Origin: Planctomycetota bacterium
GTDB taxonomy: Bacteria; Planctomycetota; GCA-002687715
Length of the DNA: 64,000 nt
Direction of reading: 5' to 3'
NCBI GenBank assembly: GCA_009691765.1
Contig: SIAO01000008.1
Span: forward strand, 16,535-80,534
Shown here: positions 1-62,240 of the stretch, piece by piece
Layout of the letters: each line of letters opens with the position of its first letter
How positions within the stretch are numbered: position 1 is the stretch's first letter
Program-made: the position numbers and the translations under genes
The notes under the pieces: generated by a model
Database searches by the model: none
What the model saw: only the letters and a program-made list of their open reading frames with translations
Told to the model about the DNA's origin: nothing

Positions 1-2
1 CA

Positions 3-380
3 GCGCCAACACTCACCCTATCCACGGGCGGTTCGGTGCAATTCCAATTGATCACCGGGAGCAATCACGCAAATGAGGCTTTTGTGCTGCTCGCTTCAGC
101 TACCGGCACAAATCCCGGGCTCGCCCTCGGCAGTTTCATTCTGCCTTTGAACGATGACGATCTCCTCGCCTTCACACTCAGCAATGCCAACACGCCCATG
201 CTGACCAACACATTTTCAGCGCTCGATGCACAAGGCAGAGCACTCGCAAGCCTCAACCTGCCGCCACTCGTCGGGCTCCCCAACGCGCTTCCTCTCAACT
301 TCGCTGCGGTGCTCTTCAATCCCACCACAATGACCTTCACCGCCACCAGCTACGCCGTCCCCCTCACCCTCTTGCCTTGA
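3..380 (+). CDS. 3' part of a gene entering from the left edge; ends in a ~120-aa C-terminal domain also seen on the M1 peptidase
   Basis: Frame is open from base 3 (APTLTLSTGGSVQF...) to TGA at 380. It aligns by eye with the M1 peptidase C-terminus (ASATG.xPG, PL..D, N.NTP..N, PPL, final T.xP). Confidence 0.75.
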   Translation, partial: APTLTLSTGGSVQFQLITGSNHANEAFVLLASATGTNPGLALGSFILPLNDDDLLAFTLSNANTPMLTNTFSALDAQGRALASLNLPPLVGLPNALPLNFAAVLFNPTTMTFTATSYAVPLTLLP

Positions 381-502
381 CTGGTCGGCTCAGCAAAAGT
401 GAGTGGGGGTGGAGCATTCCGTTCGAGGCCTCCGAGCCGAAATGCGGAATCCCTTCAGGACATGCGGAACCCGCGCGAACAATCGCCCGCGCGAATCAGC
501 AA

Positions 503-3070
503 TCAGGGCTTGCGGCGCTTCGCTCGAGCGGTGGGTTCGGCGGTCCAAGGGTCTTCGGGCCAACTGTGTCGCGGGTAGCGACCGCGGAGGTCTTTGCGCA
601 CTTGCTGGTACGTCGTGTTCCAGAAACTCTTGAGATCGTGAGTCACCTGAACCACTTGGTGATTCGGCGCCAGCAAGTGAAGCAGCACACGCACACGACC
701 ACCTGCGATTGTGGGCGTATCCGGTTCTCCGAAAAGTTCTTGCAAGCGCACCGCCAAGACCGGTGGCTTGTCGGCCGCGTATTCCAAGACCCGCGTGGAA
801 CCCGACGGCAAGCTGAGTGACTCGGGAACTTGTGTGAGCGCGTCGCGCAAACGTCTCTCCCCCATGATTGCCGTGAGCAAATCATGCAAGGGCACGCGCC
901 GAACATCCTCCAAACTAGGGCACTGCTCAATCCACGGATCTACCGCCGCCACCAACGCGGCGGCATCAAGAACTGGTAATTCCAGCTCCGGACGCCACGC
1001 GCGCAAACAGCTCAAGCGCAACAAGAGTTGCAACTCCTCAGCGCGCTGCTCAAGCAACGCTTCAGGTGCGTTTTGCAACATGGCCCGCAACGCCGCGGCC
1101 CCCGCAGCGGCATCCTGCACGGGGCTCTGGGATTCCGAGAGCACCAAGTCTTCGTAACGCTGCACCTTGCGGCGCATGGCACGGCCGCGAGTATCGTCCC
1201 AAACCACGGATTCTTCAGCCTGCAACGCGCCCGGAATGTCAGACAACCACGCGGGCTCCACCGCACTGGCCACGCGTACCTGCGCTCGCGCATGCAAACC
1301 GCGGCGCCCAAGATCCGCATCGAGCACAAGAAACAGCTCTGCGTCGCGCACCACTGATGCAGGTCCCAGAGTGACACCGCGACCGCCAACCATCATTCCA
1401 TCGGCCCCGCCGAGCGTGAGCCGCCGCGCCACGCGGTCAGGCCACGCTTGCAACAAACAACGCAACAGCGTGGATTCTTCTGCGTCGAGCACTGCTGCCC
1501 GCATAGGTGCAGCACGCACGGAAAGTGCCGCAGCGTACTGCTCGGCGGCGCGTTGAACGACATCCACGGCTGCGCGATCGCACGAACGCCCGTCGCCTCC
1601 CGCAAGCATGTCGCGCCGCGCCAAAACATCGCTCGGCCCCGTGGGCAAGTGCACCAACGAGGCAGCATCCGTGCGGCGCACGATGTCGCGTTCGCTGAGC
1701 AATGCCGCCAGCCACACACCCTGCGCCAACACGCCAGCGTCCTGCGTGGCCAAGAGCAAGCGCGCCACTCGCGGATGCGCCGCGACATCCAACATGCGCC
1801 GCCCTGTTGCGGTTGGCACGCCGTCGCGCACGGCGCCCAAGCGTTGCAGCAGACTCTCTGCGCGTACAAGGGCTTCGGGAGCCGGGGCCTCAAACCACGC
1901 AAACTTTGCAAGATCGCGTTCGCCGAAAGCGTGCAGCTCCAAGGCCGTGCGCGCCAAGTCCACGCGCTGCAATTCCGGAGTTTCGAATTCCGGCATCGCC
2001 GCTTCTTCAGCCTTCGTCCACAAGCGATACACAACACCGGGCGCAGTGCGCCCTGCACGACCTGCGCGCTGCGTTGCACTTGCCCGTGAAATGGAACGAA
2101 GTTCAAGGCGATCAATCCCGTGATCGGGGTCGTGAATGTTGAAACGCGCTTCACCGCTGTCCACCACGGCGCGCACACCGGGAATGGTCAACGATGTTTC
2201 AGCAATGTTGGTGGCGAGAATCACTTTGCGGCGCGCAGAAACAGACAACACGCGATCTTGCTCTTCGCTGCGCAGTTCGCCATGCAGCGGGAGGATGTCT
2301 ACGCCGTTCAGATCCGAAAGAGCTTCAAAGGTCCGGCGGATTTCGCCAACACCCGGCAAGAACACCAACACATCGCCCTCGCACGAACGCAGCGCAACCC
2401 TTGTCGCTGCTGCGGCACGCGAAGGCAGTGGCCGATCGTCGCGAGCTTCAGCGTGGCGAATCTCCAAAGGGAACATGCGTCCCGGAACTTCTATCAGCGG
2501 AGCGCCACCGAGAAACGCGGCCACAGGCGCGGCATCCAATGTGGCCGACATCACCACGAGGCGCAGGTCTGGGCGCAACGACTGCTGCACTTCTCGCAAC
2601 AACGCCAACCCCACATCAGCGTGCAAACTGCGCTCATGGAACTCGTCCAACACGACGCAGCCAACGCCTGGCAGCTCGGGGTTTTCCATGAGCCAGCGCG
2701 TGAGGATGCCTTCAGTGATGAACAAGATGCGCGTGGCGGCACTGGAACGGTTTTCAAAACGAATCTGCCAGCCCACTTCCGCACCCGGCGCACTGCGTCG
2801 CTCTTCAGCAACGCGCCGAGCAGCAGCACGTGCCGCCACGCGCCGCGGTTGCAGAACGACGACACGCCCGGAACCAGCGAGCCCTGCGTCCAACAGCGCC
2901 GATGGCACGCGTGTGGTTTTTCCGGCGCCCGGGGCAGCACTGATAACGACAGCAGAATGTTCGCGTAGCGCCGCCACAATGGAGGACAAATGGGCATCGA
3001 TCGGCAAGCGTTCCACGAGCAGAGGTTTCCCTGTGGCAGTGCTGGCGTCAAGCGTGTTTTCGAAGCCCAC
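503..3070 (-). CDS. hrpB: ATP-dependent helicase HrpB (DEAH/RHA family)
   Basis: APGAGKTT, QPRRVAAR, DEFHERSL, MSATLD, ATNIAETSLTIPG, QRAGRAGR, and the HrpB C-terminus RGRYPRHSWPEDP. Confidence 0.95.
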   Translation of the reverse strand: MGFENTLDASTATGKPLLVERLPIDAHLSSIVAALREHSAVVISAAPGAGKTTRVPSALLDAGLAGSGRVVVLQPRRVAARAAARRVAEERRSAPGAEVGWQIRFENRSSAATRILFITEGILTRWLMENPELPGVGCVVLDEFHERSLHADVGLALLREVQQSLRPDLRLVVMSATLDAAPVAAFLGGAPLIEVPGRMFPLEIRHAEARDDRPLPSRAAAATRVALRSCEGDVLVFLPGVGEIRRTFEALSDLNGVDILPLHGELRSEEQDRVLSVSARRKVILATNIAETSLTIPGVRAVVDSGEARFNIHDPDHGIDRLELRSISRASATQRAGRAGRTAPGVVYRLWTKAEEAAMPEFETPELQRVDLARTALELHAFGERDLAKFAWFEAPAPEALVRAESLLQRLGAVRDGVPTATGRRMLDVAAHPRVARLLLATQDAGVLAQGVWLAALLSERDIVRRTDAASLVHLPTGPSDVLARRDMLAGGDGRSCDRAAVDVVQRAAEQYAAALSVRAAPMRAAVLDAEESTLLRCLLQAWPDRVARRLTLGGADGMMVGGRGVTLGPASVVRDAELFLVLDADLGRRGLHARAQVRVASAVEPAWLSDIPGALQAEESVVWDDTRGRAMRRKVQRYEDLVLSESQSPVQDAAAGAAALRAMLQNAPEALLEQRAEELQLLLRLSCLRAWRPELELPVLDAAALVAAVDPWIEQCPSLEDVRRVPLHDLLTAIMGERRLRDALTQVPESLSLPSGSTRVLEYAADKPPVLAVRLQELFGEPDTPTIAGGRVRVLLHLLAPNHQVVQVTHDLKSFWNTTYQQVRKDLRGRYPRHSWPEDPWTAEPTARAKRRKP

Positions 3071-3156
3071 GTTGATAACAGCGTTTCCGAAGCGCCATCA
3101 CGAGCACTTGGAACCGCAGAGTCTGAACTGCGCCCGGGCTATCATTCCCGCACACC

Positions 3157-4284
3157 ATGGCAAACCCCGAGGCAACAGCGCCCCAGCTCACAGGAGTTCG
3201 CATCTTGCACGTGGTGCCGTGCCTTGGCACCGGCGGACTCGAACTGGCCCTCGCGCGCTTGTCGCGTGCCTTGCAAGAGCGCGGCGCAGTGCAAGCGGTA
3301 GCGGTGATGTCTGGCGATTTGCTCATCGCGGACAAATTTGCGCCGGGCATCACACTGCAAGCGCTGCATGGCAAACCCAACGAGTGGGCACTGCCGCGAC
3401 GTCTGCGCGCCGTTATCCGCGAGTTTCGTCCGCACGTCATTCACTGCCGCAATTGGGGTGCGTGGCCGGATACGGTCCGAGCGCGTGGATTCATCGGTTC
3501 TCGACCGCCGTTGGTTTTCTCGTTCCATGGCACCACCGAACCCGCTCCCATGCCTTGGCGGAGGCGTGCTGCGTTCCGCGTCCTCGCGCGCTGGACCACC
3601 GAACTTTTCACCGTATCTGAAGCGGCACGTACGCGCCTCGTCGAAGAAGTGGGACTGCCTCGCAAGCGCATCGGGTTAATTCCGAATGGCATTGATGTTC
3701 AGCGCTACGCTTCGGCCCCACAGCGCCGCACTGGTGAGCGCTTCATCATTGGCACCGTCGGCAATCTGAACCCCATCAAAAACCAAGCACTGTTGGTGCG
3801 CGCGCTGTCACAATTGCGCGCCGACGGCGTGGACGCTGAAGTGCGCATCGCCGGCGAAGGTGCGCTGCGCGAACCGCTCGTCGCGCTCGCACGCGAACTC
3901 GGAGTGCAAGACCGATTGCACCTGAGCGGTCATGTTGACGACATCCCGGCATTCTTGGCGCAGCTCTCAGCCTTCGTGCTGTGCTCGAAACTCGAAGCGC
4001 ACCCGAACTCGCTCATTGAAGCGATGGCCGCGCACCTCCCCTGCGTGGGCACGAACACCGGGGGCATCCCCGAAGTGTTGCTGCATGGCGCGGTCGGGCA
4101 CCTCACACCTGAGGGAGACGCTGCCGCGCTCGCCAGCGCCTTGCGCAAACTCCATGACGACCCTGCGCAGGCCGCTGCGCTCGCAGCCCGCGGCCGCGCC
4201 CACTGTGAGAGCGTCTATTCTCTCGATGCCATGGTGCGCGCCTATGCCTGCATGTACACACGTCTGGCAGCGCAACTTCGATAG
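3157..4284 (+). CDS. Glycosyltransferase family 4 (GT-B)
   Basis: GGLE near N-terminus, IPNGID, VGNLNPIKNQ, EAHPNSLIEAMA (E-x7-E), GGIPEV. Confidence 0.9.
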   Translation: MANPEATAPQLTGVRILHVVPCLGTGGLELALARLSRALQERGAVQAVAVMSGDLLIADKFAPGITLQALHGKPNEWALPRRLRAVIREFRPHVIHCRNWGAWPDTVRARGFIGSRPPLVFSFHGTTEPAPMPWRRRAAFRVLARWTTELFTVSEAARTRLVEEVGLPRKRIGLIPNGIDVQRYASAPQRRTGERFIIGTVGNLNPIKNQALLVRALSQLRADGVDAEVRIAGEGALREPLVALARELGVQDRLHLSGHVDDIPAFLAQLSAFVLCSKLEAHPNSLIEAMAAHLPCVGTNTGGIPEVLLHGAVGHLTPEGDAAALASALRKLHDDPAQAAALAARGRAHCESVYSLDAMVRAYACMYTRLAAQLR

Positions 4285-4425
4285 TTTTATTGTCTCGGAT
4301 CAAGATTCCGGGCCCGTGCTGTTCGCTGCACATTAGGATTCAAAGTGCCCTGCGGGCTACTCTCAGCACACGCCGCCACAAAGAACCCGTATGGCACCTA
4401 TCACCAGTCCTTGAAGGAGTACGTC

Positions 4426-6399
4426 ATGCTTCGATTCCTGCCAGTCGTTGCCCTTCTCAGCCTCTGCCTCAGCTTGAGCGCGCAAGACCCCACTGATGCC
4501 CAACACGTGTTGTTGAACATCGAGATCAACCCGAGCACTCAAGTCATCAGCGGCACTTGCACGTGGACGGTGCGCTGCGCTGTGACAGGGCTGTCCAGCA
4601 TGACTCTGCAATTGCACAACAGCTTCGCGGTGTCGAATGTGCGCGTGAATGGCAGTGCAACGGCATCGACGCGCCCCACGGATGCCGTCACCATCACCCT
4701 CGACCACACCTACGTGCTGAACGAAGTATTCACAGTGGCGCTCGACTACACCGGCACCCCGAGCGGTGCTGCAGGCTTTGGCTCGTTCGCATTCCAAACT
4801 CATGGCAGTCCTGCCACTTCGATCATCAACTCACTCTCGGAGCCTTACTACTCCTACACATGGTGGCCCTGCAAAGAAACGCTGACCGACAAGTTCACCA
4901 CTGAAACGTGGGTGACTGTGCCGTCCACGCTCTACGTCGCTTCGAACGGCCTGCTGCAAGGCACGGACATACTTGCCGGTGGTCGGACGCGCTATCGCTG
5001 GTCGAGCAACTATCCCATCGCCACCTACGGCGTGTCGGTGACGGCTACGAATTACCAAATACGTACGGACTCATGGGCCAATGCCGGACCAACAATGCCC
5101 GTCTCTTTCTACGCCTATCCCGAAAGCTTCGCGGGCGAACAGACCAACATGGATCGCATCGTGCCCATGCTCACGACATTTTCCAGCCTCGTCGGGCAAT
5201 ACCCCTTCGTCAACGAGAAATACGGCATCTGCCAGTTCAATTGGGGTGGCGGCATGGAGCATCAAACCATCACAAGCCAAGTGAACTTCAGCGAGAACTT
5301 GAGTGCGCACGAGTTGGGCCATTCATGGTGGGGCAATTGCATCACCTGCGCCACATGGCACGACATCTCGCTCAATGAAGGTTTCGCTACATACATGGAA
5401 GCGCTGTGGGACCAAAACAAAGCCGGCGGCACATTGGCCACCTACTTCACGCGCATGAATGCGAACAAGCCCGCGAGCCCGACCACCACTGGCAGTGTGT
5501 ATGTGAACGACATTTCCAATGTGAACTCGATTTTCAGCACCACCAATGTGTATCACAAAGGTGCGTGGGTCCTGCATCAGCTGCGCCATGTTGTCGGCGA
5601 CGCCGCCTTCTTCCAGATTCTCGCGGACTACCGCACAGCGAAGGATTACCAGAGCGCCACTTGGGACGAATTCAAGGCGATCGCTTCTGTGAGCTATGGG
5701 CAAGACCTCACGTGGCTCATCGATCAATGCGTGTACCGCACTGGTGCTCCAACCTTTCGACTTTCTTGGGACAACCGCACAGTGAACGGGCAGACTTTTG
5801 TAGTCGGCAACGTTGAACAAACACAAACGGCTTTGGCCTATCGCTACCCCGTCGACATTCAGGTGACCACGGCTGCCGGCCAAACGACTCATGTGGTGTG
5901 GACCGACCAAAAACGCGACGACTTCACGCTGCTCACGAATGGCGCGGCCACCGCAGTCGTTCTCGACCCAGCTCCGTGGATTCTGCGCGGCACCACGGCC
6001 ACGGGCACATTCGCTCCAAGCCTCACGACATCGACGGCGACAGTGCCACGCACCGGTGGCACGGCGACCTTCACGCTGAATGCAGGAACTGGCAACGGAC
6101 TGCGTGGCTACTTAATCGGCGCATCCGCGACAGGCATCTCACCCGGCATCACTTTGCTGGATGGCAAGCAGATTCCGCTTGTCCTCGACAGCTTCACTTA
6201 CGCAGCGCTCGGCAACGTCAACACACCTACATTTGCAAACTTCAGTGGTGCGCTCAGCCCTACGGGCACCGCAACAGCACAACTCGTGGTGCCGCCGCTG
6301 CCGCCGCTCGCCGGACCGATCACGCTGCATTTCGCTTTCATCAGCTCGACCACACCAGTGTTCACCTCAACACCAGTGACCGTCACCATCACTCCTTGA
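4426..6399 (+). CDS. Secreted M1 family aminopeptidase with shared C-terminal domain
   Basis: SD GAAGGAG before ATG 4426; signal peptide MLRFLPVVALLSLCLSLSA; GGMEH, HELGH-x18-E, YHKGAWVLH. Confidence 0.92.
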   Translation: MLRFLPVVALLSLCLSLSAQDPTDAQHVLLNIEINPSTQVISGTCTWTVRCAVTGLSSMTLQLHNSFAVSNVRVNGSATASTRPTDAVTITLDHTYVLNEVFTVALDYTGTPSGAAGFGSFAFQTHGSPATSIINSLSEPYYSYTWWPCKETLTDKFTTETWVTVPSTLYVASNGLLQGTDILAGGRTRYRWSSNYPIATYGVSVTATNYQIRTDSWANAGPTMPVSFYAYPESFAGEQTNMDRIVPMLTTFSSLVGQYPFVNEKYGICQFNWGGGMEHQTITSQVNFSENLSAHELGHSWWGNCITCATWHDISLNEGFATYMEALWDQNKAGGTLATYFTRMNANKPASPTTTGSVYVNDISNVNSIFSTTNVYHKGAWVLHQLRHVVGDAAFFQILADYRTAKDYQSATWDEFKAIASVSYGQDLTWLIDQCVYRTGAPTFRLSWDNRTVNGQTFVVGNVEQTQTALAYRYPVDIQVTTAAGQTTHVVWTDQKRDDFTLLTNGAATAVVLDPAPWILRGTTATGTFAPSLTTSTATVPRTGGTATFTLNAGTGNGLRGYLIGASATGISPGITLLDGKQIPLVLDSFTYAALGNVNTPTFANFSGALSPTGTATAQLVVPPLPPLAGPITLHFAFISSTTPVFTSTPVTVTITP

Positions 6400-6412
6400 G
6401 CCTCAATGCGTA

Positions 6413-6448: not shown

Positions 6449-7423
6449 TCACTTCTGCAACGGCAACACCACGCGGAAACCCAAGTGATTCAACCCCGTG
6501 TCACAGCTGGATTTCATGCGTGCACTACAGCGGTAGCCGTGGCACACATCCACATCACATAAGAACGATCCACCGCGCATCACACGCTTAGGAATCGTGG
6601 GCTCAGCAGGATCATTGAAATCCTCTGGCCCTGTTGGATTACTCACGCGCACGCCAGATTGCGACAGAAGTGCATAGCTGTTTCCGCGATACCAATCGGA
6701 ACACCATTCCCACACATTGCCCGCCATGTCGTGCAATCCGTAACCATTCGCTGCGAAAGAACGCACCGGTGCGCATCCCTTGAAACCGTCACTCCCACTG
6801 TCAGTTACAGGGAACTCACCTTGCCACACATTGGCGTGCGGCTTCGGGCTCAACACCTCTTCGTCGCCCCACGGATAGCGCGCTGCGCTCAAACCGCCAC
6901 GCGCGGCCCATTCCCACTCTGCTTCCGTGGGCAAGCGCCCGCCGACCCAATTGCAAAAAGCCACTGCGTCATCCCAAGAGACTTGCACGACAGGGAAATC
7001 CTCCTTGCCGTCAATGTTGGAATCGGGGCCAAGAGGACGACACCATTGCGCTCCTATCACCCATTCCCAACCAACACCGGCATGATGCACGAGCGCCCCA
7101 GGGACAAGCGCCGTGGGGTCGGGCTCTTGCGCGCCTTCAGGAAGCTGAGCCATCAGCACCGCTTTGTCCGGCGTCTTTTCTGCCGTGGTCATGTACCCCG
7201 TAGCGCGCACAAACTGCCGAAACATCCGATTGGTGATTTCCGTGGCCGACATGCGGAATCCATCCACATGCACTGCCACCTGCGGCAACTCGTCTGCCAA
7301 GCCCTCTGCTGAACCCATCAAGAAATCGCCAGAGGGAATGAGGACCAGTCCCACATCGAGTGGCTCCTTTTGTGCACAGCTTGGCAAGAGCAGCACGAGG
7401 AGCAGCAAGGACGCACGTGACAT
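6449..7423 (-). CDS. Formylglycine-generating enzyme (SUMF1/FGE), predicted lipoprotein
   Basis: RLPTEAEWE, DMAGNVWEWC, RGGSFLCDVDVCHGYRCSAR (catalytic Cys pair), GFR; lipobox-like LLPSC. Confidence 0.92.
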   Translation of the reverse strand: MSRASLLLLVLLLPSCAQKEPLDVGLVLIPSGDFLMGSAEGLADELPQVAVHVDGFRMSATEITNRMFRQFVRATGYMTTAEKTPDKAVLMAQLPEGAQEPDPTALVPGALVHHAGVGWEWVIGAQWCRPLGPDSNIDGKEDFPVVQVSWDDAVAFCNWVGGRLPTEAEWEWAARGGLSAARYPWGDEEVLSPKPHANVWQGEFPVTDSGSDGFKGCAPVRSFAANGYGLHDMAGNVWEWCSDWYRGNSYALLSQSGVRVSNPTGPEDFNDPAEPTIPKRVMRGGSFLCDVDVCHGYRCSARMKSSCDTGLNHLGFRVVLPLQK

Positions 7424-7467: not shown

Positions 7468-8895
7468 ATGCGCACCACTGTCTTGCTGCTGTTGCTCTTT
7501 GCTGGCGTGAACTGCGCCCAAGAATCGCGTCTCCAACCCAACATCGTCTTGGTGCTCGCCGACGACCTCGGCAGCGCGGAATTCAGTTGCACCGGATCGA
7601 AAGTGTTGCAGACGCCACACATCGACGCGCTGCGCAAAAACGGCATCATGTTCACACAAGCCTATTCCGGCGCTCCGGTGTGCGCGCCCAGCCGTTGCGT
7701 GCTGCTCACAGGACGCGACAGTTTGCACGCGCAGATTCGTGACAACCATGAAGTGCGCAACCCCAGCGCTGGTTTGTACGGCGGACAACGCGCATTAAAA
7801 ACAGGCACTACAACGCTGGCTTCACTGTTGCATGCTGAGGGTTATGCGACCGGATGTTTCGGCAAGTGGGGTTTGGGTGGCAGCGTTGAAGAACACGCAA
7901 GCGGACATCCATTGCGGCAAGGCTTTGAACGCTTCTATGGTTATCTCTGCCAACGCAACGCGCACAGTTATTGGCCCGCGTACCTCGACAGCGACGCAAC
8001 GCGCGAGGCGTTCCCAGATAACAAGCGCAGTTCAGGAACCACATGGGCGCCCGAGCGCATCACCGAAGAAGCGCTCATTTGGATGGAGCATGTGAAAGCG
8101 AAACCATTCTTTCTCTACTTTCCTAGCATCCTGCCGCATCTCGCATTGCAAGCGCCACTCGACGCAATGGCCTCCGTGCCGCCCATCGAAAACGACACTC
8201 CCTATGACGGGAAAAAAGGCTACGAGGCCTGTGAGCGACCACGAGCCACGTACACAGCCATGGTGCAGCGTCTCGATGCGCACGTGGGACAGCTCGTGAA
8301 CAAGGTGCGCAGCCTAGGTTTGCTGGAGCGCACAATCTTCATCGTGTTGAGCGACAACGGCGCCACTTGGGAGCTTGGCGGCTACGACCCCGTTTGGTTT
8401 CGCGGCAATGGCGAACTGCGCGGACACAAAGGGCAGGTGTACGAAGGTGGCATCCGCGTGCCCTTCATCGCTTCGTGGGCGGGGCGCACGAAGGCAGGTG
8501 CGAGCTGCGCGTTGCCCGTGGCGCACCAAGACTTGCTGCCGACCTTATGTGCGTTGGCCGGCGTGAAATCGCCACCAACCAGCGAAGGCGTGAATCTCGC
8601 AGAGTGGATTTGCGGCAAAGAAGGCCCAACGACGCGCGCACCGCTTTGCTGGGAATTCCCGCAAGGCAACGGGGCGCAGGCGGTGCGCATGGGGAATTGG
8701 AAAGGCGTGCGCCGCAATGGCAAGAAGAATTCCGCCGCGAGGATGGAACTGTACGACCTCGCAACAGATCCAGCGGAAGCAAACGATATTGCGGCCGCTC
8801 ATTCAGACATCGTAAAGGCCATGCTTGCGCTGCTTGCGCAACGCACACTCACGGAATTCGCGGAATGGGAGTTCCCAGAGAGCACAACGCGATAA
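7468..8895 (+). CDS. Arylsulfatase (Cys-type S1 sulfatase), secreted
   Basis: PNIVLVLADDLG, CAPSR, GKWGLG, SDNG, YEGGIRVP, ELYDL; signal peptide. Confidence 0.95.
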   Translation: MRTTVLLLLLFAGVNCAQESRLQPNIVLVLADDLGSAEFSCTGSKVLQTPHIDALRKNGIMFTQAYSGAPVCAPSRCVLLTGRDSLHAQIRDNHEVRNPSAGLYGGQRALKTGTTTLASLLHAEGYATGCFGKWGLGGSVEEHASGHPLRQGFERFYGYLCQRNAHSYWPAYLDSDATREAFPDNKRSSGTTWAPERITEEALIWMEHVKAKPFFLYFPSILPHLALQAPLDAMASVPPIENDTPYDGKKGYEACERPRATYTAMVQRLDAHVGQLVNKVRSLGLLERTIFIVLSDNGATWELGGYDPVWFRGNGELRGHKGQVYEGGIRVPFIASWAGRTKAGASCALPVAHQDLLPTLCALAGVKSPPTSEGVNLAEWICGKEGPTTRAPLCWEFPQGNGAQAVRMGNWKGVRRNGKKNSAARMELYDLATDPAEANDIAAAHSDIVKAMLALLAQRTLTEFAEWEFPESTTR

Positions 8896-10301: not shown

Positions 10302-10419
10302 ACGGCACTGCACCACGCGCTGATAATGACCGCAAATACAGCGTGCCTTGGTGCCATGCGCTCGTGTATATTGGCAGTGGCCACCGCGAATCCAACCGCG
10401 AACGCCTCGGAGCTGGTCC

Positions 10420-12183
10420 ATGAAACACGTCACATCTGTTTGCATTGCATGCGCGATGATCCTGGGTGCATCGAATGTGCTGCGCGCGCAAACGGTCCTC
10501 GGCACCAACACGGGCAGCGCAGCGAACCAGCTGCTTGGCCGTCAGATGCAAGCAGTGGGTGACTGCGACGGCGATGGCCGCACGGACTTCGTCGTCGGCA
10601 CATCCTTCGCAGCGGCATCAACGGGCGTCAGCGGTGGTGGTTTGGTGCGGCTCGTTTCTGGCGCAACCGGTGTCACCATCTTCAGCACGCCGGGCACAGC
10701 GAACCTCCAACAACTCGGAATGGCCGTTGCGCGCGCGGGCGATGCAAACATTGACGGTGTCCCTGACTACGCAGCGGGGCAAACTTGGTTTGGCCCGGCG
10801 CTTCCTTTGCCCACCACGGCGCCACAGCCAGCTGTGGTCATCTATAGCGGGCTCACCGGCGGTGTCATCCGCACGCTGCTCGCGCCCGCGGGGACTTCAG
10901 AGTTTGGTGCAGCCATCGCCAATGCGGGTGACCGCACGGGCGACGGTATCGACGATTTCATCGTTGGCAGCCGCTCCAGCAGCTCAGCGCACTTGATGAA
11001 CGGATTCAATGGAGCCGTGCTACTGCCCTTCAGCGGGCCAGCCGGATCGCGCTTCGGCAACAGTGTTGCAGCACTCGGAGACATCACGGGCGACGGCATC
11101 GGTGAGTTTCTGATCGGGGCGAGCAGTGCAACTCTTGGCACCGTGACGAGCATTGGCGTTGCATACATCTTCGATGGCGCGAATGGTGCGCAGCTACGCA
11201 CTCACAACGGCACTTTTGCAGGCGACTTGTTTGGATCGACGCTCGCCGCCGTGCCCGATGTGAATGCTGACGGCGTTAGCGATTACTGCATCGGTGCGCC
11301 ATCCGGCGATTGGAATGGCTTGGTTAATGTCGGTGTGGTTCGCATGTTCAGCGGCGTGAGCGGCGCGTTGCTGTGGAGTCTGCAAGGCACGCAGGCCTAT
11401 CTCAGTACCAGCACCAGCAACCTTGGCGAAACGCTCGGATCGTCCCTAGCGCACGCAGGTGACATCAATATCGATGGCTGGCCAGATGTAATCGTCGGCG
11501 CTTCTGGTCACAACGGCATTGCAGAAGACTGCGGGCGCGCAGACCTTGTCTCTGGCTTCGACGGCTCGCTCCTCGGACGCTTCGAAGGCAGCGCCCTAGA
11601 TGATGGGACCGGCAGCGGTGTTGCCTCCCTCGGCGACAGTGATTCGGATGGCTGGGGCGAGGTGCTGGTCGGCACTTCACGCCACGACTTGCCCGCAATG
11701 CCAGATGCTGGCCGTGTGGACATTCTCTCGTATGGCCCATTTCTCGGAGGTTGCGCTGCCGGGGCGAACACCATCGTGTATTTGCGTGTGAACGGTTCGC
11801 TGGGTGGCGCGGCACACCGCGTCGACATCGCACTCAACGCGGCGATCAATATCGAGATGGTGAATTTGTCCATGTCTCCATTGCCAGCGAACTTTTTGCT
11901 CTTCGCCAAAGTCGGTGTGCCGGGCGCTCCCGATATCACCTATATTCCTGGCGTCGGCACGATGTGTTTCGCTCCCTCACTCTTGGCGCCGTGGGACCCG
12001 AGCCTATTCCTGCTTGCATCATCGTTTCCGACATTGCCGGGACTCATCCCCGCGACGAGCGCAAGCTGGAACAGCACCATTCCGGGCCTAGCCTTCCCTG
12101 TGCGCGTGACGCTGCAACCTGTGATCTCGTTTCCGCCGGGAAGCTACTGGGTAGGTAACGCCATCCTCGCCAACATTCGTTGA
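10420..12183 (+). CDS. Secreted FG-GAP/integrin-alpha repeat protein
   Basis: Seven GD.DGDG..D-type repeats with FG..V/IA and VGA flanks; signal peptide; GGAG upstream. Confidence 0.9.
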   Translation: MKHVTSVCIACAMILGASNVLRAQTVLGTNTGSAANQLLGRQMQAVGDCDGDGRTDFVVGTSFAAASTGVSGGGLVRLVSGATGVTIFSTPGTANLQQLGMAVARAGDANIDGVPDYAAGQTWFGPALPLPTTAPQPAVVIYSGLTGGVIRTLLAPAGTSEFGAAIANAGDRTGDGIDDFIVGSRSSSSAHLMNGFNGAVLLPFSGPAGSRFGNSVAALGDITGDGIGEFLIGASSATLGTVTSIGVAYIFDGANGAQLRTHNGTFAGDLFGSTLAAVPDVNADGVSDYCIGAPSGDWNGLVNVGVVRMFSGVSGALLWSLQGTQAYLSTSTSNLGETLGSSLAHAGDINIDGWPDVIVGASGHNGIAEDCGRADLVSGFDGSLLGRFEGSALDDGTGSGVASLGDSDSDGWGEVLVGTSRHDLPAMPDAGRVDILSYGPFLGGCAAGANTIVYLRVNGSLGGAAHRVDIALNAAINIEMVNLSMSPLPANFLLFAKVGVPGAPDITYIPGVGTMCFAPSLLAPWDPSLFLLASSFPTLPGLIPATSASWNSTIPGLAFPVRVTLQPVISFPPGSYWVGNAILANIR

Positions 12184-57882: not shown

Positions 57883-60222
57883 ATGCGCATTCTGCTCACT
57901 GGCGCCACCGGCTATCTCGGCAAACACTTGCTCGCCCGCTTCCTTGCGGACGGGCACAGCGTCACGCTATTGGTGCGACAAGCCGCGCGCCTACCGACCG
58001 ATCTGAACGGCCATGTCGAAACCATCGCCGCGGATCTGATGGATCCTGTCCCAGCTGCTGCGTTGAAGGGCGTGCATGCAGATGTGTTGGTCCACGCCGC
58101 TGCGGAGATTCACCCTGAGACTGGGGCCGCGCGCCTCATGGCGGTAAACCGCGACGGCACCATTCATGCCATCAAAGCAGCGGCGCGCACAGGCACGAAA
58201 CGCGTAGTGCTGATTTCTTCTTTGGAAGCCGCTGGTCCGCACTTGTGGTCGGATGGCGAAGTGTTCGAAGACGCAATGCCCGCACCCACGACCGAGTACG
58301 GACGCTCGAAGCTGGCTGGAGAAGCGGCGGCCGCCGACCTGACAAGATTGCTCGGTTTGGAATTGGTGGTGCTGCGCCCTGGAAATATTTACGGCGAAGG
58401 CGTCGCGGGCATCGCCAGCACCATTGTTGCAGCCTATGGTGACGATCACGAACAGCTCCGACGCGAGTGGGCCAATCATCGGTTCCAACCAGTGCACATC
58501 AGCGATGTGGTTCAAGCGTGCGTGCTCGCGATGCAGCATGGTGACGGTGTCATCAACATCACCGACGGACACCGGCCCAATGTTGGCGACCTCGTCGAGG
58601 ATGCGCTCGAAGTTGCCTCGTGGCGCTCCTTGCGTCCTCCGCCACTGCTGCGACCCCACAACGTCACGCCATCACCCGAACGCATCCACTACCGCTATCG
58701 GCTGGACCGCGCTTGGAACGTGCTTGGGTTCGTGCCGCGCTATTCGTTTCGTACCGGGCTCTTGGATCTCGTGGATCAACTTGGTTTCGGTTTGCCGCGC
58801 CTGAATGTGTCAACGACGAGTGGAAAACTGTTCACACTGTTGCTGAACACTCCCACCGAGCATATTCACCTCAATCGCGACATGGGCGGCGGCATGGGCT
58901 TCGTGCACGACAACGCCGATCGCTTCCCACCATTGGATCTGCTGTACTTGGGAACTAGTCTCAAGCGCAAAGGTTGGCCCGTCGTGATCGTGGATGGCGG
59001 CATCAACCCACTCCTGCCCACGAATGTGTTCCACCTCATCAACAAGGAAGGCATTCGCGCTGTCATCGCCGAAGTGAACTTGCCCACCTTTGAGCTCGAC
59101 TTGCTGTTCTTGAAAGAACTCAAGCGCTTCACTCATGCGCGCATCGTCGCCAAGACAGCTCTGACGGAGCTCCACTTCCACGAACGCCTACTGCGTGAAG
59201 GCGAAGTTGATTTCGTGCTCACAGGCGAATGTGATCTGACGATTGATCAGGTTTTGCTCGGGCTCGATGAACGCGGCACGGTGCGCCTCAAGGCTGGCAA
59301 GGTGCACAGTGTGCCCGAGGACAAGCTCGTCGATCTCTCTTTGCTTCCGCTTCCAGACCGCGGTCTGCTTGCTCACACGCCCTACACCTACAGTTTGCTT
59401 CCAACAGGCTTCGCCACAGTTCAATCCAGTCGTGGTTGCCCGTACTCCTGCGGTTTCTATTGCCCCTACCCACTCACGCAGGGAAAAACTTGGAGAGCAC
59501 GCCCGGCCGCGCATGTGGTGGATGAACTGGAAGATTGTGTCGCCCGCGGTTTGCGCAGCGTGCTGTTCCGCGATGCCACTTTCACGTTGGACAAGGCGCG
59601 CGTGCACGAGATCTGTCGCCTCATCGCGGAGCGCAATCTCAAACTCGATTGGTGGTGCGAGACTCGCATCAACTGTCTGGACAAGGCGCTGCTGCAAGTC
59701 ATGGCAGCGGCGGGTTGCCGGGGCATTAACTTCGGCATTGAAAGCGGCGACGACGAAGTGCTGGCCAAGGGCGCAAAGCAAGGCGTGGATGTGAAGCGCA
59801 TCCGGCGCGTCCTGCTTGAAACTGAAGCGGTCGGCATCCACTCGCACTTGCTGGTGGTCGTCGGCCTGCCTGAAGAAACTCGCGCCACTATCGCGCATAC
59901 CTACGATCTGTTCGCTGAGCTCCCCGCCCGCACTCTCGGTGTCACTGGCATCACTCCCTTCCCTGGAACAGCATTGTGGAAGACCGCCGTTGAACGCGGC
60001 TGGGTGCTGGACCTGAATTGGGAACACTACGGTGGCAATCACACGGTGATGCGCACTGAAAACCTGTCGCCCGCAGACATCCGCTTCGCCGGCCAAATGC
60101 TCTTTGACGGCTTTCACCTCACGAGGCCAAACAGTGGCGCTGACGCCGCGACACGCAAAGCCCATCGCGAGAAACTCGCAGAATGGGTGACGCACGGGCT
60201 CGCCGCCGACGCTCCTGTCTGA
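57883..60222 (+). CDS. Fusion of NAD-dependent epimerase/dehydratase and B12-binding-type radical SAM enzyme
   Basis: TGATGYLG, YGRSK, LRPGNIYG; then PPLDL, GECD, SRGCPYSCGFYCPY, FRDATFT, FGIESG, GLPEET, PFPGT. Confidence 0.9.
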   Translation: MRILLTGATGYLGKHLLARFLADGHSVTLLVRQAARLPTDLNGHVETIAADLMDPVPAAALKGVHADVLVHAAAEIHPETGAARLMAVNRDGTIHAIKAAARTGTKRVVLISSLEAAGPHLWSDGEVFEDAMPAPTTEYGRSKLAGEAAAADLTRLLGLELVVLRPGNIYGEGVAGIASTIVAAYGDDHEQLRREWANHRFQPVHISDVVQACVLAMQHGDGVINITDGHRPNVGDLVEDALEVASWRSLRPPPLLRPHNVTPSPERIHYRYRLDRAWNVLGFVPRYSFRTGLLDLVDQLGFGLPRLNVSTTSGKLFTLLLNTPTEHIHLNRDMGGGMGFVHDNADRFPPLDLLYLGTSLKRKGWPVVIVDGGINPLLPTNVFHLINKEGIRAVIAEVNLPTFELDLLFLKELKRFTHARIVAKTALTELHFHERLLREGEVDFVLTGECDLTIDQVLLGLDERGTVRLKAGKVHSVPEDKLVDLSLLPLPDRGLLAHTPYTYSLLPTGFATVQSSRGCPYSCGFYCPYPLTQGKTWRARPAAHVVDELEDCVARGLRSVLFRDATFTLDKARVHEICRLIAERNLKLDWWCETRINCLDKALLQVMAAAGCRGINFGIESGDDEVLAKGAKQGVDVKRIRRVLLETEAVGIHSHLLVVVGLPEETRATIAHTYDLFAELPARTLGVTGITPFPGTALWKTAVERGWVLDLNWEHYGGNHTVMRTENLSPADIRFAGQMLFDGFHLTRPNSGADAATRKAHREKLAEWVTHGLAADAPV

Positions 60223-60253
60223 AGCGATTTCAGTCGGAAGACCTGCGCGGCCG

Positions 60254-60640
60254 ATGAGCTTTGTGGAGTTCGCTCAAGTGCCCCTCAATCCTTCATCCCT
60301 CGAAGTGCTCTCCGCACGCCGCCACCAGAGGCACAACTGCGACATACCGGTTTCATGGCAACTGCCGGGCCGCAAACTCACCGGACACTCGCGTCTGCTC
60401 AATCTCGGGCTTGGCGGTGCATGCCTTGAACTGCCATTCGCGATCACTGGCCCTGAGCCCCTCGAACTTTGTTTCACGCTCGATGATGGAGCAACCATCA
60501 CACTGAACAGCCGCATCATCTGGTCCAGCGGCGATGAGGATGTGCTGCCACGCCGCACTGGCGTTCAGTTTCAGAGCATGAGCGACGATGCGCGGCGAAG
60601 TCTCGACGCCTTCCTGCAGCGCGTTGCACACAAAGCCTGA
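60254..60640 (+). CDS. PilZ domain protein
   Basis: RRHQR (RxxxR) and NLGLGG motifs; GVQF. Confidence 0.85.
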   Translation: MSFVEFAQVPLNPSSLEVLSARRHQRHNCDIPVSWQLPGRKLTGHSRLLNLGLGGACLELPFAITGPEPLELCFTLDDGATITLNSRIIWSSGDEDVLPRRTGVQFQSMSDDARRSLDAFLQRVAHKA

Positions 60641-60701
60641 TCCTTCACAACCGCGTCTGAAGTGATTGGCGCGCCACTATGCCATCCGCTTCATGAAGTT
60701 C

Positions 60702-61244
60702 AGGTGTGCATCAGGCAAGTCTGCTGCGTTTGCCCCACAGCAATCGTGCCGCTGAAACTGTTGAACACACCCGGCAAGAGCGAGCTAGTTCCGTGCGTTG
60801 TCGTGGCTGTGCCAGCGAGCCGTCGCTGCCAAGGAAGAATCTCGCAGCGTTTCAGACGGCGACCGCACTCACTCCGAACTCATCAACGGCGCCATTGCCG
60901 TTACCACACTGTCCCGCGAGATTGCTGCCCCATGCCATGACAGTGCCATCGTTCTTGAGAGCGAGGCTGTGCCTGTCCCCGGCCGCAACGGCGATCACAC
61001 CAGACAGAATGCTCGGCGAGATCTGCTGGAATGTCGTGAACGTAGACAATGCTCCGTCAAGACCGAGTTGACCAACGTCATTGTGCCCAGCAGACAGCAC
61101 GGTGCCATTCCCTTGGAGCACAAGGGTGTGCAAAGTGCCCGCGCTGACACGAATCTCGGCCGATGATTGAAGCGGACACGACTGCGCCCACGAGAGAGTT
61201 GCAAGAAGGACGATGGCAACAAAGATGCTTGCGAAATCACGCAT
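60702..61244 (-). pseudogene. Truncated RCC1-repeat secreted protein
   Basis: Signal peptide; only about two RCC1 repeats (SAGTLHTL..GHNDVGQLG; AAGDRHSLALKNDGTVMAWGSNLAGQCG); stop at 60852; out-of-frame remnant LPGVFNSFSGTI downstream. Confidence 0.65.
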
Positions 61245-61433
61245 GTCGAACCCTCGGGCTCGCTGTTCGTCGGCGCATTGACACACTACATTTTCACTAG
61301 CCTTGCCCGGCTCCTGCACCGATGTTTATCAGCGCACAGAGCCTGCAAGCACAACTCCGATCAAGGAACCGAGGGGATTCTCAGCGTCGTGGGCGTTGAT
61401 GCTTGACGCACGCTCAAGAAGCACGCTGTGTTG

Positions 61434-62240
61434 TCAGCCCACTGCGGAAACGGCAACGCGACCCGTAGCGTCGAGCAGCGGCGTAGCACGGTCCTGCATG
61501 CTCAAACGGCGAGTGAACGAGCTTTGCGAACCGAGCGCCGCAATCATCGCTTGGCGCACGAGTTCTGTGGAGTTGTTCTCTTTCGAGAGATGCGCCAACA
61601 CCAAATGCCGCAAGTGTGGGTTTGCGTACTGCGCGATGGCTTGGGCTGCATCAGCATTGTTCATGTGGCCATGAAGGCCGCCCACGCGAGCGCGCAGCCA
61701 CGGAGGATAGGGCCCCTGTTCCATCATGCCGGAATCGTGATTGGCCTCGATGATGATGGCGGTGCAACGCCGAATCGCTGCCCCGACCGTGGCATCTACA
61801 TGCCCGAGGTCTGTGAAAAAACCCAGCGTCGCATCACCACAGTGCACGAGAAACGCTACAGGCTCCGCGGCATCGTGAGGCTTGACCACTGGCTCCACCA
61901 ACATCGGACCCACACGCACACTCTCGACACCCAGCTCTCGACACTTCAGCCCGTCAGTGCGCCCCTTACAGGCGCCGCGCGTGCCCTCGTTGATCCACAC
62001 TTCTGCACCGCTGCTTTGCGCCACACGCGCCACATGCTGCACATGATCGGCATGTTCGTGCGTAATGAAGATGGCCGTCGGCCGTGCGCTACAACCGATG
62101 GAGGTGATGCGTTCTTGTGTGGCACGCGCGCTAATGCCAGCGTCCAACAACAGACTCATACCGCCAGCTTGCACGAGTACGGAGTTTCCGGCGCTACCGC
62201 TACCAAGCACAGAAAACTGAAGTAGCTCCGACGCTGCCAC
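61434..62240 (-). CDS. MBL-fold metallo-hydrolase (YycJ/WalJ-like)
   Basis: LGSGSAGN, DAG, THEHADH, HDA, TDLG, EANHD, GHMNN, HLSKENN. Confidence 0.92.
   Translation of the reverse strand: MAASELLQFSVLGSGSAGNSVLVQAGGMSLLLDAGISARATQERITSIGCSARPTAIFITHEHADHVQHVARVAQSSGAEVWINEGTRGACKGRTDGLKCRELGVESVRVGPMLVEPVVKPHDAAEPVAFLVHCGDATLGFFTDLGHVDATVGAAIRRCTAIIIEANHDSGMMEQGPYPPWLRARVGGLHGHMNNADAAQAIAQYANPHLRHLVLAHLSKENNSTELVRQAMIAALGSQSSFTRRLSMQDRATPLLDATGRVAVSAVG

Follow-up and report, generated by a model that had tools for sequence, protein, structure and literature searches.

We describe here a terminal protein domain shared by two genes in a 64,000-nucleotide stretch of planctomycete DNA (the window; contig C21 of the source genome G000, G000:C21:16535-80534): a gene cut by the left edge of the window and a gene for an M1-family metallopeptidase. 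The domain, hereafter called the tag domain, is an autonomous immunoglobulin (Ig)-like module of ~125 residues that is appended, nearly always in last position, to Sec-exported proteins of unrelated function. We propose that it might be an envelope docking or retention handle for exported proteins, a reading that we place first although it falls somewhat short of probable. According to this proposal, Sec export and removal of the signal peptide would come first, with the folded tag domain staying on its passenger; the domain would then dock the passenger to a common envelope component, possibly a receptor protein or a glycan of the surface or periplasm, and the docked peptidases, phosphatases, dehydrogenases, and adhesin-like repeat proteins would stay with the cell. 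The source genome, from an uncultured freshwater planctomycete, comprises 2.58 Mb in 28 contigs (90% complete; G+C ~0.61).

When the 125-amino-acid product of the edge gene was compared with the peptidase by BLASTP, residues 1-122 of the former aligned with residues 557-683 of the latter, with 48 of 129 positions identical (37%; E = 3e-13). The short motifs from which a sequence-only reading of this DNA had proposed a shared C-terminal domain all fell inside this alignment. A profile built from the two tails alone found seven open frames in the source genome at a domain E value below 1e-3, the two seeds included. Because five further frames of the same genome were recovered in this way, we concluded from these comparisons of sequence that the edge-gene and M1 tails are homologous and that their likeness lies far beyond chance; the proposed sharing of a domain between the two genes was thus confirmed.

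Only the 3' end of the edge gene lies in the window (3-380, plus strand), with the frame open at the window edge and the stop codon at 378-380; the tag domain, located by BLASTP against the peptidase tail and by the genome profile search, occupies the codons from 3 to 377. The whole gene (G000:C21:15313-16911) lies mostly upstream of the window and is a frame of 533 codons. As read from the genome contig, it encodes a signal-like leader, then an arylsulfotransferase-type beta-propeller (Pfam PF05935, Arylsulfotrans; E = 1.3e-18, residues 37-374), and then the tag domain at 407-532. An edge gene that was simply an M1 paralogue would have refuted the proposed sorting or anchoring domain; since the gene has an arylsulfotransferase-like propeller, this outcome was excluded. 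The M1 gene (4426-6399, plus strand; 657 codons and a stop) was taken to start at the ATG that gives MLRFLPVVALLSLCLSLSAQ, the ATG at 4426 being the likely start, and its product is identical to a database protein of 657 amino acids (P0001). Judged by its sequence, this carrier meets both curated cut-offs of peptidase family M1, with 88.8 bits to PF01433 Peptidase_M1 (E = 5e-25; cut-off 27.7) and 28.9 bits to PF17900 Peptidase_M1_N (E = 1.5e-6; cut-off 25.8), and its HExxH motif reads HELGH in the translation. A putative Sec signal peptide of 19 residues, ending in LSA and followed by Gln, was read in the translation at 4426-4482 (plus strand). The catalytic body, composed of Peptidase_M1_N and Peptidase_M1, extends over 4510-5727 on the same strand (residues 56-228 and 315-461 of the frame starting at 4345), and the tag domain of 128 residues occupies 6013-6396 (plus strand), ending one codon before the stop (profile E = 2.1e-33).

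An iterated profile search of the open frames of the genome converged on 15 copies of the domain, and the alignment of these 15 members (A1) gave 16 matches when searched against the same genome. Twelve of the 15 copies end no more than one residue from the stop codon. Two others are internal to intact proteins, namely an S8 peptidase (domain at 675-805 of 1008) and a protein of contig C18 with the order LTD-domain-PhoX (domain at 239-368 of 1085), and the copy on contig C23, which is followed by 120 codons of an Arg/Cys-rich open frame, looks damaged. The passengers recognized by Pfam, in a scan that took 14 of the carrier proteins with the M1 peptidase scanned separately, were two GSDH-type dehydrogenases, the S8 peptidase, an M10 peptidase with a TIG domain, the M1 peptidase, an LTD protein, the LTD-PhoX protein, an ASST-like propeller, and an RCC1-like fragment; five carrier proteins had no Pfam family at all. 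An N-terminal hydrophobic leader was read in 13 of the 15 carriers, and the remaining two frames lack their N-termini.

The same picture emerged from public data at a far larger scale. A profile search of 1.84 billion cluster representatives returned 8257 at E <= 1e-3, of which 4001 also reached E <= 1e-10; layout was analyzed in the best 150 of these representatives, and passengers were tallied by Pfam and NCBIfam in the first 100 of those 150. The domain ends within five residues of the C-terminus in 141 of the 150, and it is present in a single copy in all except P0007, which has two in tandem (149/150). Directly after the signal peptide it was observed in four representatives (P0111, P0082, P0112, and P0136), and in P0111 a beta-lactamase-family domain follows. 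Internal domains were observed in P0101, whose LTD-domain-PhoX architecture is the same as that of the C18 protein of the source genome, and in P0060, in which a peptidase precedes the domain and Laminin_G_3 follows it. The passengers of the 100 representatives belong to 60 Pfam families, none of them on more than seven proteins, and to 75 NCBIfam families, none on more than eight, which indicates that none of these families covers the shared domain itself. Among the 103 representatives that start with Met and have at least 250 residues, 87 carry a hydrophobic 10-mer in their first 45 residues, compared with 3 of 103 in an internal control window. The domain adjoins its passenger without a flexible linker, and the 30 residues preceding it are of ordinary composition, with no conserved motif, linker, or cleavage site found in the representatives. 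It is poor in Cys and in charged residues (DEKR make up 8.9% of the domain but 14.6% of the remaining protein sequence), and its loops have conserved positions with aromatic residues, Asn, or Asp that follow the pattern F-x-N-F-x-G-x-L-D; a second conserved loop reads P-L-N-x-D. Thus, the expectations of many copies and of diverse carriers with signal peptides were both borne out, and the expectation that the domain is always C-terminal held for nearly all copies but failed for the few N-terminal or internal members.

Searches for a known counterpart gave no sign that the domain has been named. None of the 15 domains of the source genome matched a Pfam family at E <= 10, the two window tails gave nothing meaningful against NCBIfam, and the domain profile had no match at E <= 10 among all PDB chain sequences. 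The 30 nearest ESM Atlas clusters were all annotated as "hypothetical", share no common Pfam 38.1 family, and belong to Planctomycetota where the phylum is known. A full-text literature search returned no description of the domain in the text it covered. The structure predicted by AlphaFold2 from alignment A1 (predicted local distance difference test score 91.2; predicted template modeling score 0.84) comprises eight strands, with a single short helix spanning residues 60-67. Foldseek found only weak relatives in the PDB, the best being a PapD-like chaperone (E = 6.6e-4, template modeling score 0.42). A VIA-align fold search reached Z scores of at most 9.0, to PECAM Ig, complement/macroglobulin (MG), and intimin/invasin Big domains, a level that is common for models without a clear relative. 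On this model, the fold is a generic Ig-like beta-sandwich and assigns no function.

These data bear on the possibility that the tag domain is a substrate- or particle-binding module, similar to a carbohydrate-binding module or an adhesin domain, that tethers enzymes to polymeric food or to surfaces. A single modular beta-sandwich that tolerates N-terminal, internal, and C-terminal positions, contains very few charged residues, and has conserved aromatic, Asn, and Asp positions in its loops would suit such a role, and the carriers are freshwater heterotrophs with many hydrolases. However, a match to a known carbohydrate-binding module, which would have spoken against a sorting or anchoring function, was not found: there was no such Pfam family in the 15 domains (E <= 10) or among the 25 of 60 families listed for the 100 representatives. 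Likewise, the best 50 fold matches included no carbohydrate-binding module, nor any chain of a C-terminal domain (CTD) from type IX secretion systems (T9SS). The domain is also almost always present once per protein, unlike many binding modules. Moreover, the passengers act on peptides, phosphate esters, sugars, or sulfate esters, and some are not enzymes; therefore, one shared substrate is unlikely, and we consider this explanation doubtful.

The distribution of the domain was addressed in 41 related genomes and in genomes sampled evenly across the phylum. Among the relatives, each of the 23 genomes from the order to which the source genome belongs carries the domain, with 5 to 63 matches, as do 3 of 18 other families. 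In the phylum sample it was found in 56 of 301 Planctomycetota genomes, and every multiply sampled family shown was all-or-none (7/7, 6/6, 3/3, and 2/2 vs. 0/15, 0/15, 0/10, and 0/10). In three genomes of one family (4.9-6.1 Mb), which had 276-391 first-look candidates, all 150 of the 150 candidates scored were matches; therefore, each of these genomes holds at least 150 copies. The high-copy genomes are interrelated, and thus their counts are not independent events. Tag-domain genes were also often observed in tandem runs of two to five per contig, for example in G010:C99, G001:C83, G016:C136, G054:C2:1378959-1381201, and G107:C77.

A passive structural domain, whether a spacer, an aid to folding or stability, or a pro-domain that can be removed, as with the bacterial pre-peptidase C-terminal domain (PPC), would account for some of these properties, because secreted proteins of bacteria often contain Ig-like domains as fillers, and the tag domain directly adjoins its passenger. 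A filler, however, is not expected to be so terminal, to be single-copy, to be expanded to at least 150 genes, and to be all-or-none by family. The domain matches neither PPC nor other known accessory domains, and it occupies a slot in which orthologues carry a dockerin. Such a passive role therefore seems very unlikely to us.

The terminal slot of the M1 peptidase is filled differently outside the lineage. An orthologue with 62% identity (L015) carries the tag domain. More distant orthologues with 46-39% identity, L016 from Sedimentisphaerales and L017 and L018 from Planctomycetales, are without it; in these three proteins the catalytic body is followed by Big_5 and then by an acidic tail of two D-x-D-G-type repeats. 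The tail of L016 matched Pfam Dockerin_1 with 27.7 bits (cut-off 22.9), and the NCBIfam model for GC-type dockerins scored 20.8 bits, short of the required 29; for L017 and L018, the tails are dockerin-like by eye only. As far as these sequence matches go, M1 orthologues from other lineages have a dockerin-type tail in the slot that the tag domain holds here. A comparable exchange in the edge gene was sought, and one close relative has the domain, while five genomes lacking the domain gave no usable orthologue. "Choice-of-anchor" is the name given to protein bodies found with alternative C-terminal anchors, and bodies named for other anchors were present among the 100 representatives (choice_anch_V in 6 and the MXAN_6652 MYXO-CTERM family in 4). 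At the genome level, Dockerin_1 gave 11 matches in 8 of the 23 genomes of the order and PEP-CTERM 6 matches in 5, compared with 34 or 12 dockerins, or 37 or 10 PEP-CTERM matches, in some relatives without the tag domain. The source genome itself has no match to the dockerin family PF00404, and it has one exosortase and one PEP-CTERM (PF07589) match, the latter at C1:12694-12771, away from the tag domains. A lineage-specific, nearly always terminal domain on unrelated exported proteins, positioned where related proteins carry dockerin-type or other anchors, is the signature of a shared localization handle.

The sequence-only reading had inferred an export or surface-attachment signal for an undescribed secretion pathway. 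In its most explicit form, the domain would serve translocation across the outer membrane in a two-step pathway not yet described, where, like the T9SS CTD, it would be recognized in the periplasm by a dedicated translocon and then removed or used for covalent attachment. The position at the extreme C-terminus, both in the public representatives (141/150) and in the source genome (12/15), the last beta-strand that ends at the last residue, the Sec leaders of the passengers, and a beta-sandwich fold as in T9SS CTDs are all in accord with such a signal, and a cargo that numbers from tens to at least 150 genes in a genome, in all-or-none families, is typical of dedicated machinery. However, N-terminal (4/150) and internal domains occur in intact, conserved architectures, and no conserved cleavage motif or linker precedes the domain. 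A search of the source genome for SprA_N and for Por_Secre_tail (PF18962) found none, although the control genomes were silent for both as well, and PorV and GldKLMN were not searched for. The neighborhoods of the 15 carrier genes contained no plausible shared machinery gene; their recurrent neighbors were sigma-54 response regulators, FG-GAP/ASPIC proteins, and one unnamed secreted family only.

The model of PorU, the T9SS sortase, gave one match, to a C25-family (gingipain/PorU-like) peptidase that reached 100 bits against a cut-off of 420. This protein (P0157; G000:C27:10341-13082, minus strand, outside the window) has 914 amino acids, a leader, and a Pfam C25 match at E = 1.7e-55, and 19 of the 23 genomes of the order encode a full-length orthologue in single copy. 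In the phylum sample, C25 matches were found in 15 of 16 genomes of the order, in 10 of 40 carriers outside the order, and in 94 of 245 non-carriers. Because its distribution shows no association with the tag domain outside the order, the C25 peptidase was rejected as a general processing partner. With no translocon or sortase found and the tested C25 candidate failing, the proposed export signal was not established, and we regard a translocation signal as unlikely. A broader possibility, to which we also give little credence, is that the domain could be the cargo label of a dedicated, undescribed sorting system in a large uncultured group of Planctomycetota; if it were so, at least 150 proteins in a genome would reach the cell surface or the enlarged planctomycetal periplasm by way of this system, whose machinery would be a receptor, translocon, or transpeptidase.

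Thus, we ranked docking to the envelope ahead of a T9SS-like translocation signal. Docking is favored over a cleaved export or translocation signal because N-terminal and internal members sit in conserved architectures, because the tag domain replaces a docking module rather than a signal, and because no cleavage motif or machinery was found. Several points nevertheless weigh against docking. The C-terminal position of 94% of the public representatives is equally expected of a secretion signal, and the generic Ig/MG/intimin-like fold (best Z 9.0) gives nothing specific on binding. The analysis brought to light neither a binding partner nor a ligand or receptor gene. The exchange of tails was seen in one orthologue family only, that of M1, and the complementarity between the tag domain and dockerin or PEP-CTERM is partial, as most relatives that lack the domain also have few of these. 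Finally, related genomes are non-independent samples.

A feature of the leaders was observed alongside these results. In 47 of the 87 signal-bearing representatives, the leader has an Ala-Gln pair behind its hydrophobic core, and among these 87 leaders Gln after Ala is as frequent as Ala after Ala. The pair was also read in the sequences of 9 of the 13 carrier proteins of the source genome that have leaders, and in the window it occurs in the leaders of genes at 4426-4482, 61319-60852 (minus strand), 7468-7530, and 10330-12180. In sequence, this pattern resembles the "Q-rule" of signal peptides reported as specific to Bacteroidetes, in passages that make no mention of Planctomycetes (PMC5837995). 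A search of the source genome, which is 90% complete, for plant-type glutaminyl cyclase (PF05096) returned nothing, although the control genomes gave matches.

The sequence-only reading had further proposed that a remnant of the domain, recognized by the motif PGVFNSFSGTI, trails a broken RCC1-repeat gene near 60750. The motif sits in a frame of 59 amino acids (60703-60879, minus strand) directly behind the broken gene, and gene and frame together span 60703-61325 on the minus strand. RCC1 families of Pfam match 60855-61325 (minus strand), and no family matches 60703-60879. The domain profile did not match this frame even with filters off and at E <= 100, hhalign gave a probability of 1.6% over 12 columns, and tblastn of all 15 domains against 60000-61500 returned nothing better than E = 0.12 over 12 residues. 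The frame is thus not a member of the family, and on these searches PGVFNSFSGTI is a resemblance of a 12-residue motif only. The RCC1-repeat gene (60703-61325, minus strand) has a leader and is broken by a frame change after 155 codons, and a second RCC1-like gene, which carries the tag domain (G000:C20:806-1246), is likewise interrupted by stops in its upstream part; either of them may be a pseudogene or a product of misassembly.

Directly downstream of the M1 gene lies a divergent pair, of which 6449-7423 (minus strand) has by eye the look of a formylglycine-generating enzyme, with a lipoprotein-like leader ending in LLLPSC, and 7468-8895 (plus strand) appears sulfatase-like, both as judged from the translation only. 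Positions 1-6400 of the window were present in four freshwater DNA runs from two studies, two of which may be source runs, and none of the RNA runs was listed as containing them. Two further modules recur in secreted proteins of the genome. The first is a C-terminal region of ~200 residues common to G000:C15:33101-36124 (minus strand), C15:30757-32955 (minus strand), and C13:94513-95751 (plus strand); it stands behind the tag domain in the S8 peptidase and forms the C-terminal end of two unnamed secreted proteins, with the pattern F-Y-G-x-x-Y-x-x-L-x-V-N-x-N-G-x-(V/I)-S-F, and it is nidogen-like by eye with no Pfam match. The second, of ~180 residues, was observed in the window at 10330-12180 (plus strand), in G000:C18:31440-34028, and in G000:C7:36546-38273. 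It forms the C-terminus of the FG-GAP protein of the window and of an unnamed secreted protein of 863 amino acids, the two copies being 35% identical over 180 residues, and is internal in the third protein; it is unrelated to the tag domain (hhalign probability 0.2).

The tag domain marks up to several percent of the genes in some genomes, and its profile would put a label on much of what is now annotated as "hypothetical" in the secretome of freshwater and soil Planctomycetota that have not been cultured. It would also provide a handle, by profiling or pull-down, for finding how these bacteria retain their extracellular enzymes. For LPXTG, PEP-CTERM, and the T9SS CTD alike, the terminal tag opened the way to finding a sorting machine, and these signals define the surface proteome of whole phyla.

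Compared with these known systems, the tag domain resembles the T9SS CTD (Por_Secre_tail; PF18962/TIGR04183) as a folded beta-sandwich with which numerous unrelated Sec-exported proteins end, and in being lineage-restricted with tens to more than 100 carriers per genome. It differs in having no Por_Secre_tail sequence match, in its length (~125 residues compared with a model of 75 positions), in belonging to another phylum, and in being sometimes N-terminal or internal, as in 2 of the 15 copies of the source genome, both in intact proteins; in addition, no T9SS machinery was detected, with SprA_N controls silent and the PorU match below its cut-off. With dockerin tails (PF00404; NF041540), which are known from Planctomycetota and Clostridia and are presumed to dock secreted proteins to a cell-bound partner, it shares the terminal slot on M1 orthologues and a modular, mostly C-terminal, and position-tolerant character. 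Dockerins, however, are duplicated calcium-binding helix-loop segments of ~60-70 residues, whereas the tag domain, of 125 residues, is predicted to fold as an all-beta sandwich that includes a single short helix, has no dockerin sequence match in any of the 15 domains, and is without a known cohesin-like partner. Like PEP-CTERM, LPXTG, MYXO-CTERM, and GlyGly-CTERM, it tags the C-terminus of diverse exported proteins in a lineage-specific manner, and "choice-of-anchor" bodies occur with either kind of tag. In those signals, a short motif precedes a transmembrane helix and a basic tail, and a dedicated sortase cleaves them, whereas the tag domain is a soluble folded domain without a hydrophobic helix and, unlike PEP-CTERM, ends in an amphipathic beta-strand (for example, VTVTITP or VPLTLLP). 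Its best fold matches, Big_1 of intimin and invasin and the MG domains (Z 8.5-9.0, root-mean-square deviation 2.3-3.0 A over 86-102 residues), share only 5-15% sequence identity with it and form tandem arrays inside adhesins, whereas the tag domain stands single and terminal on enzymes.

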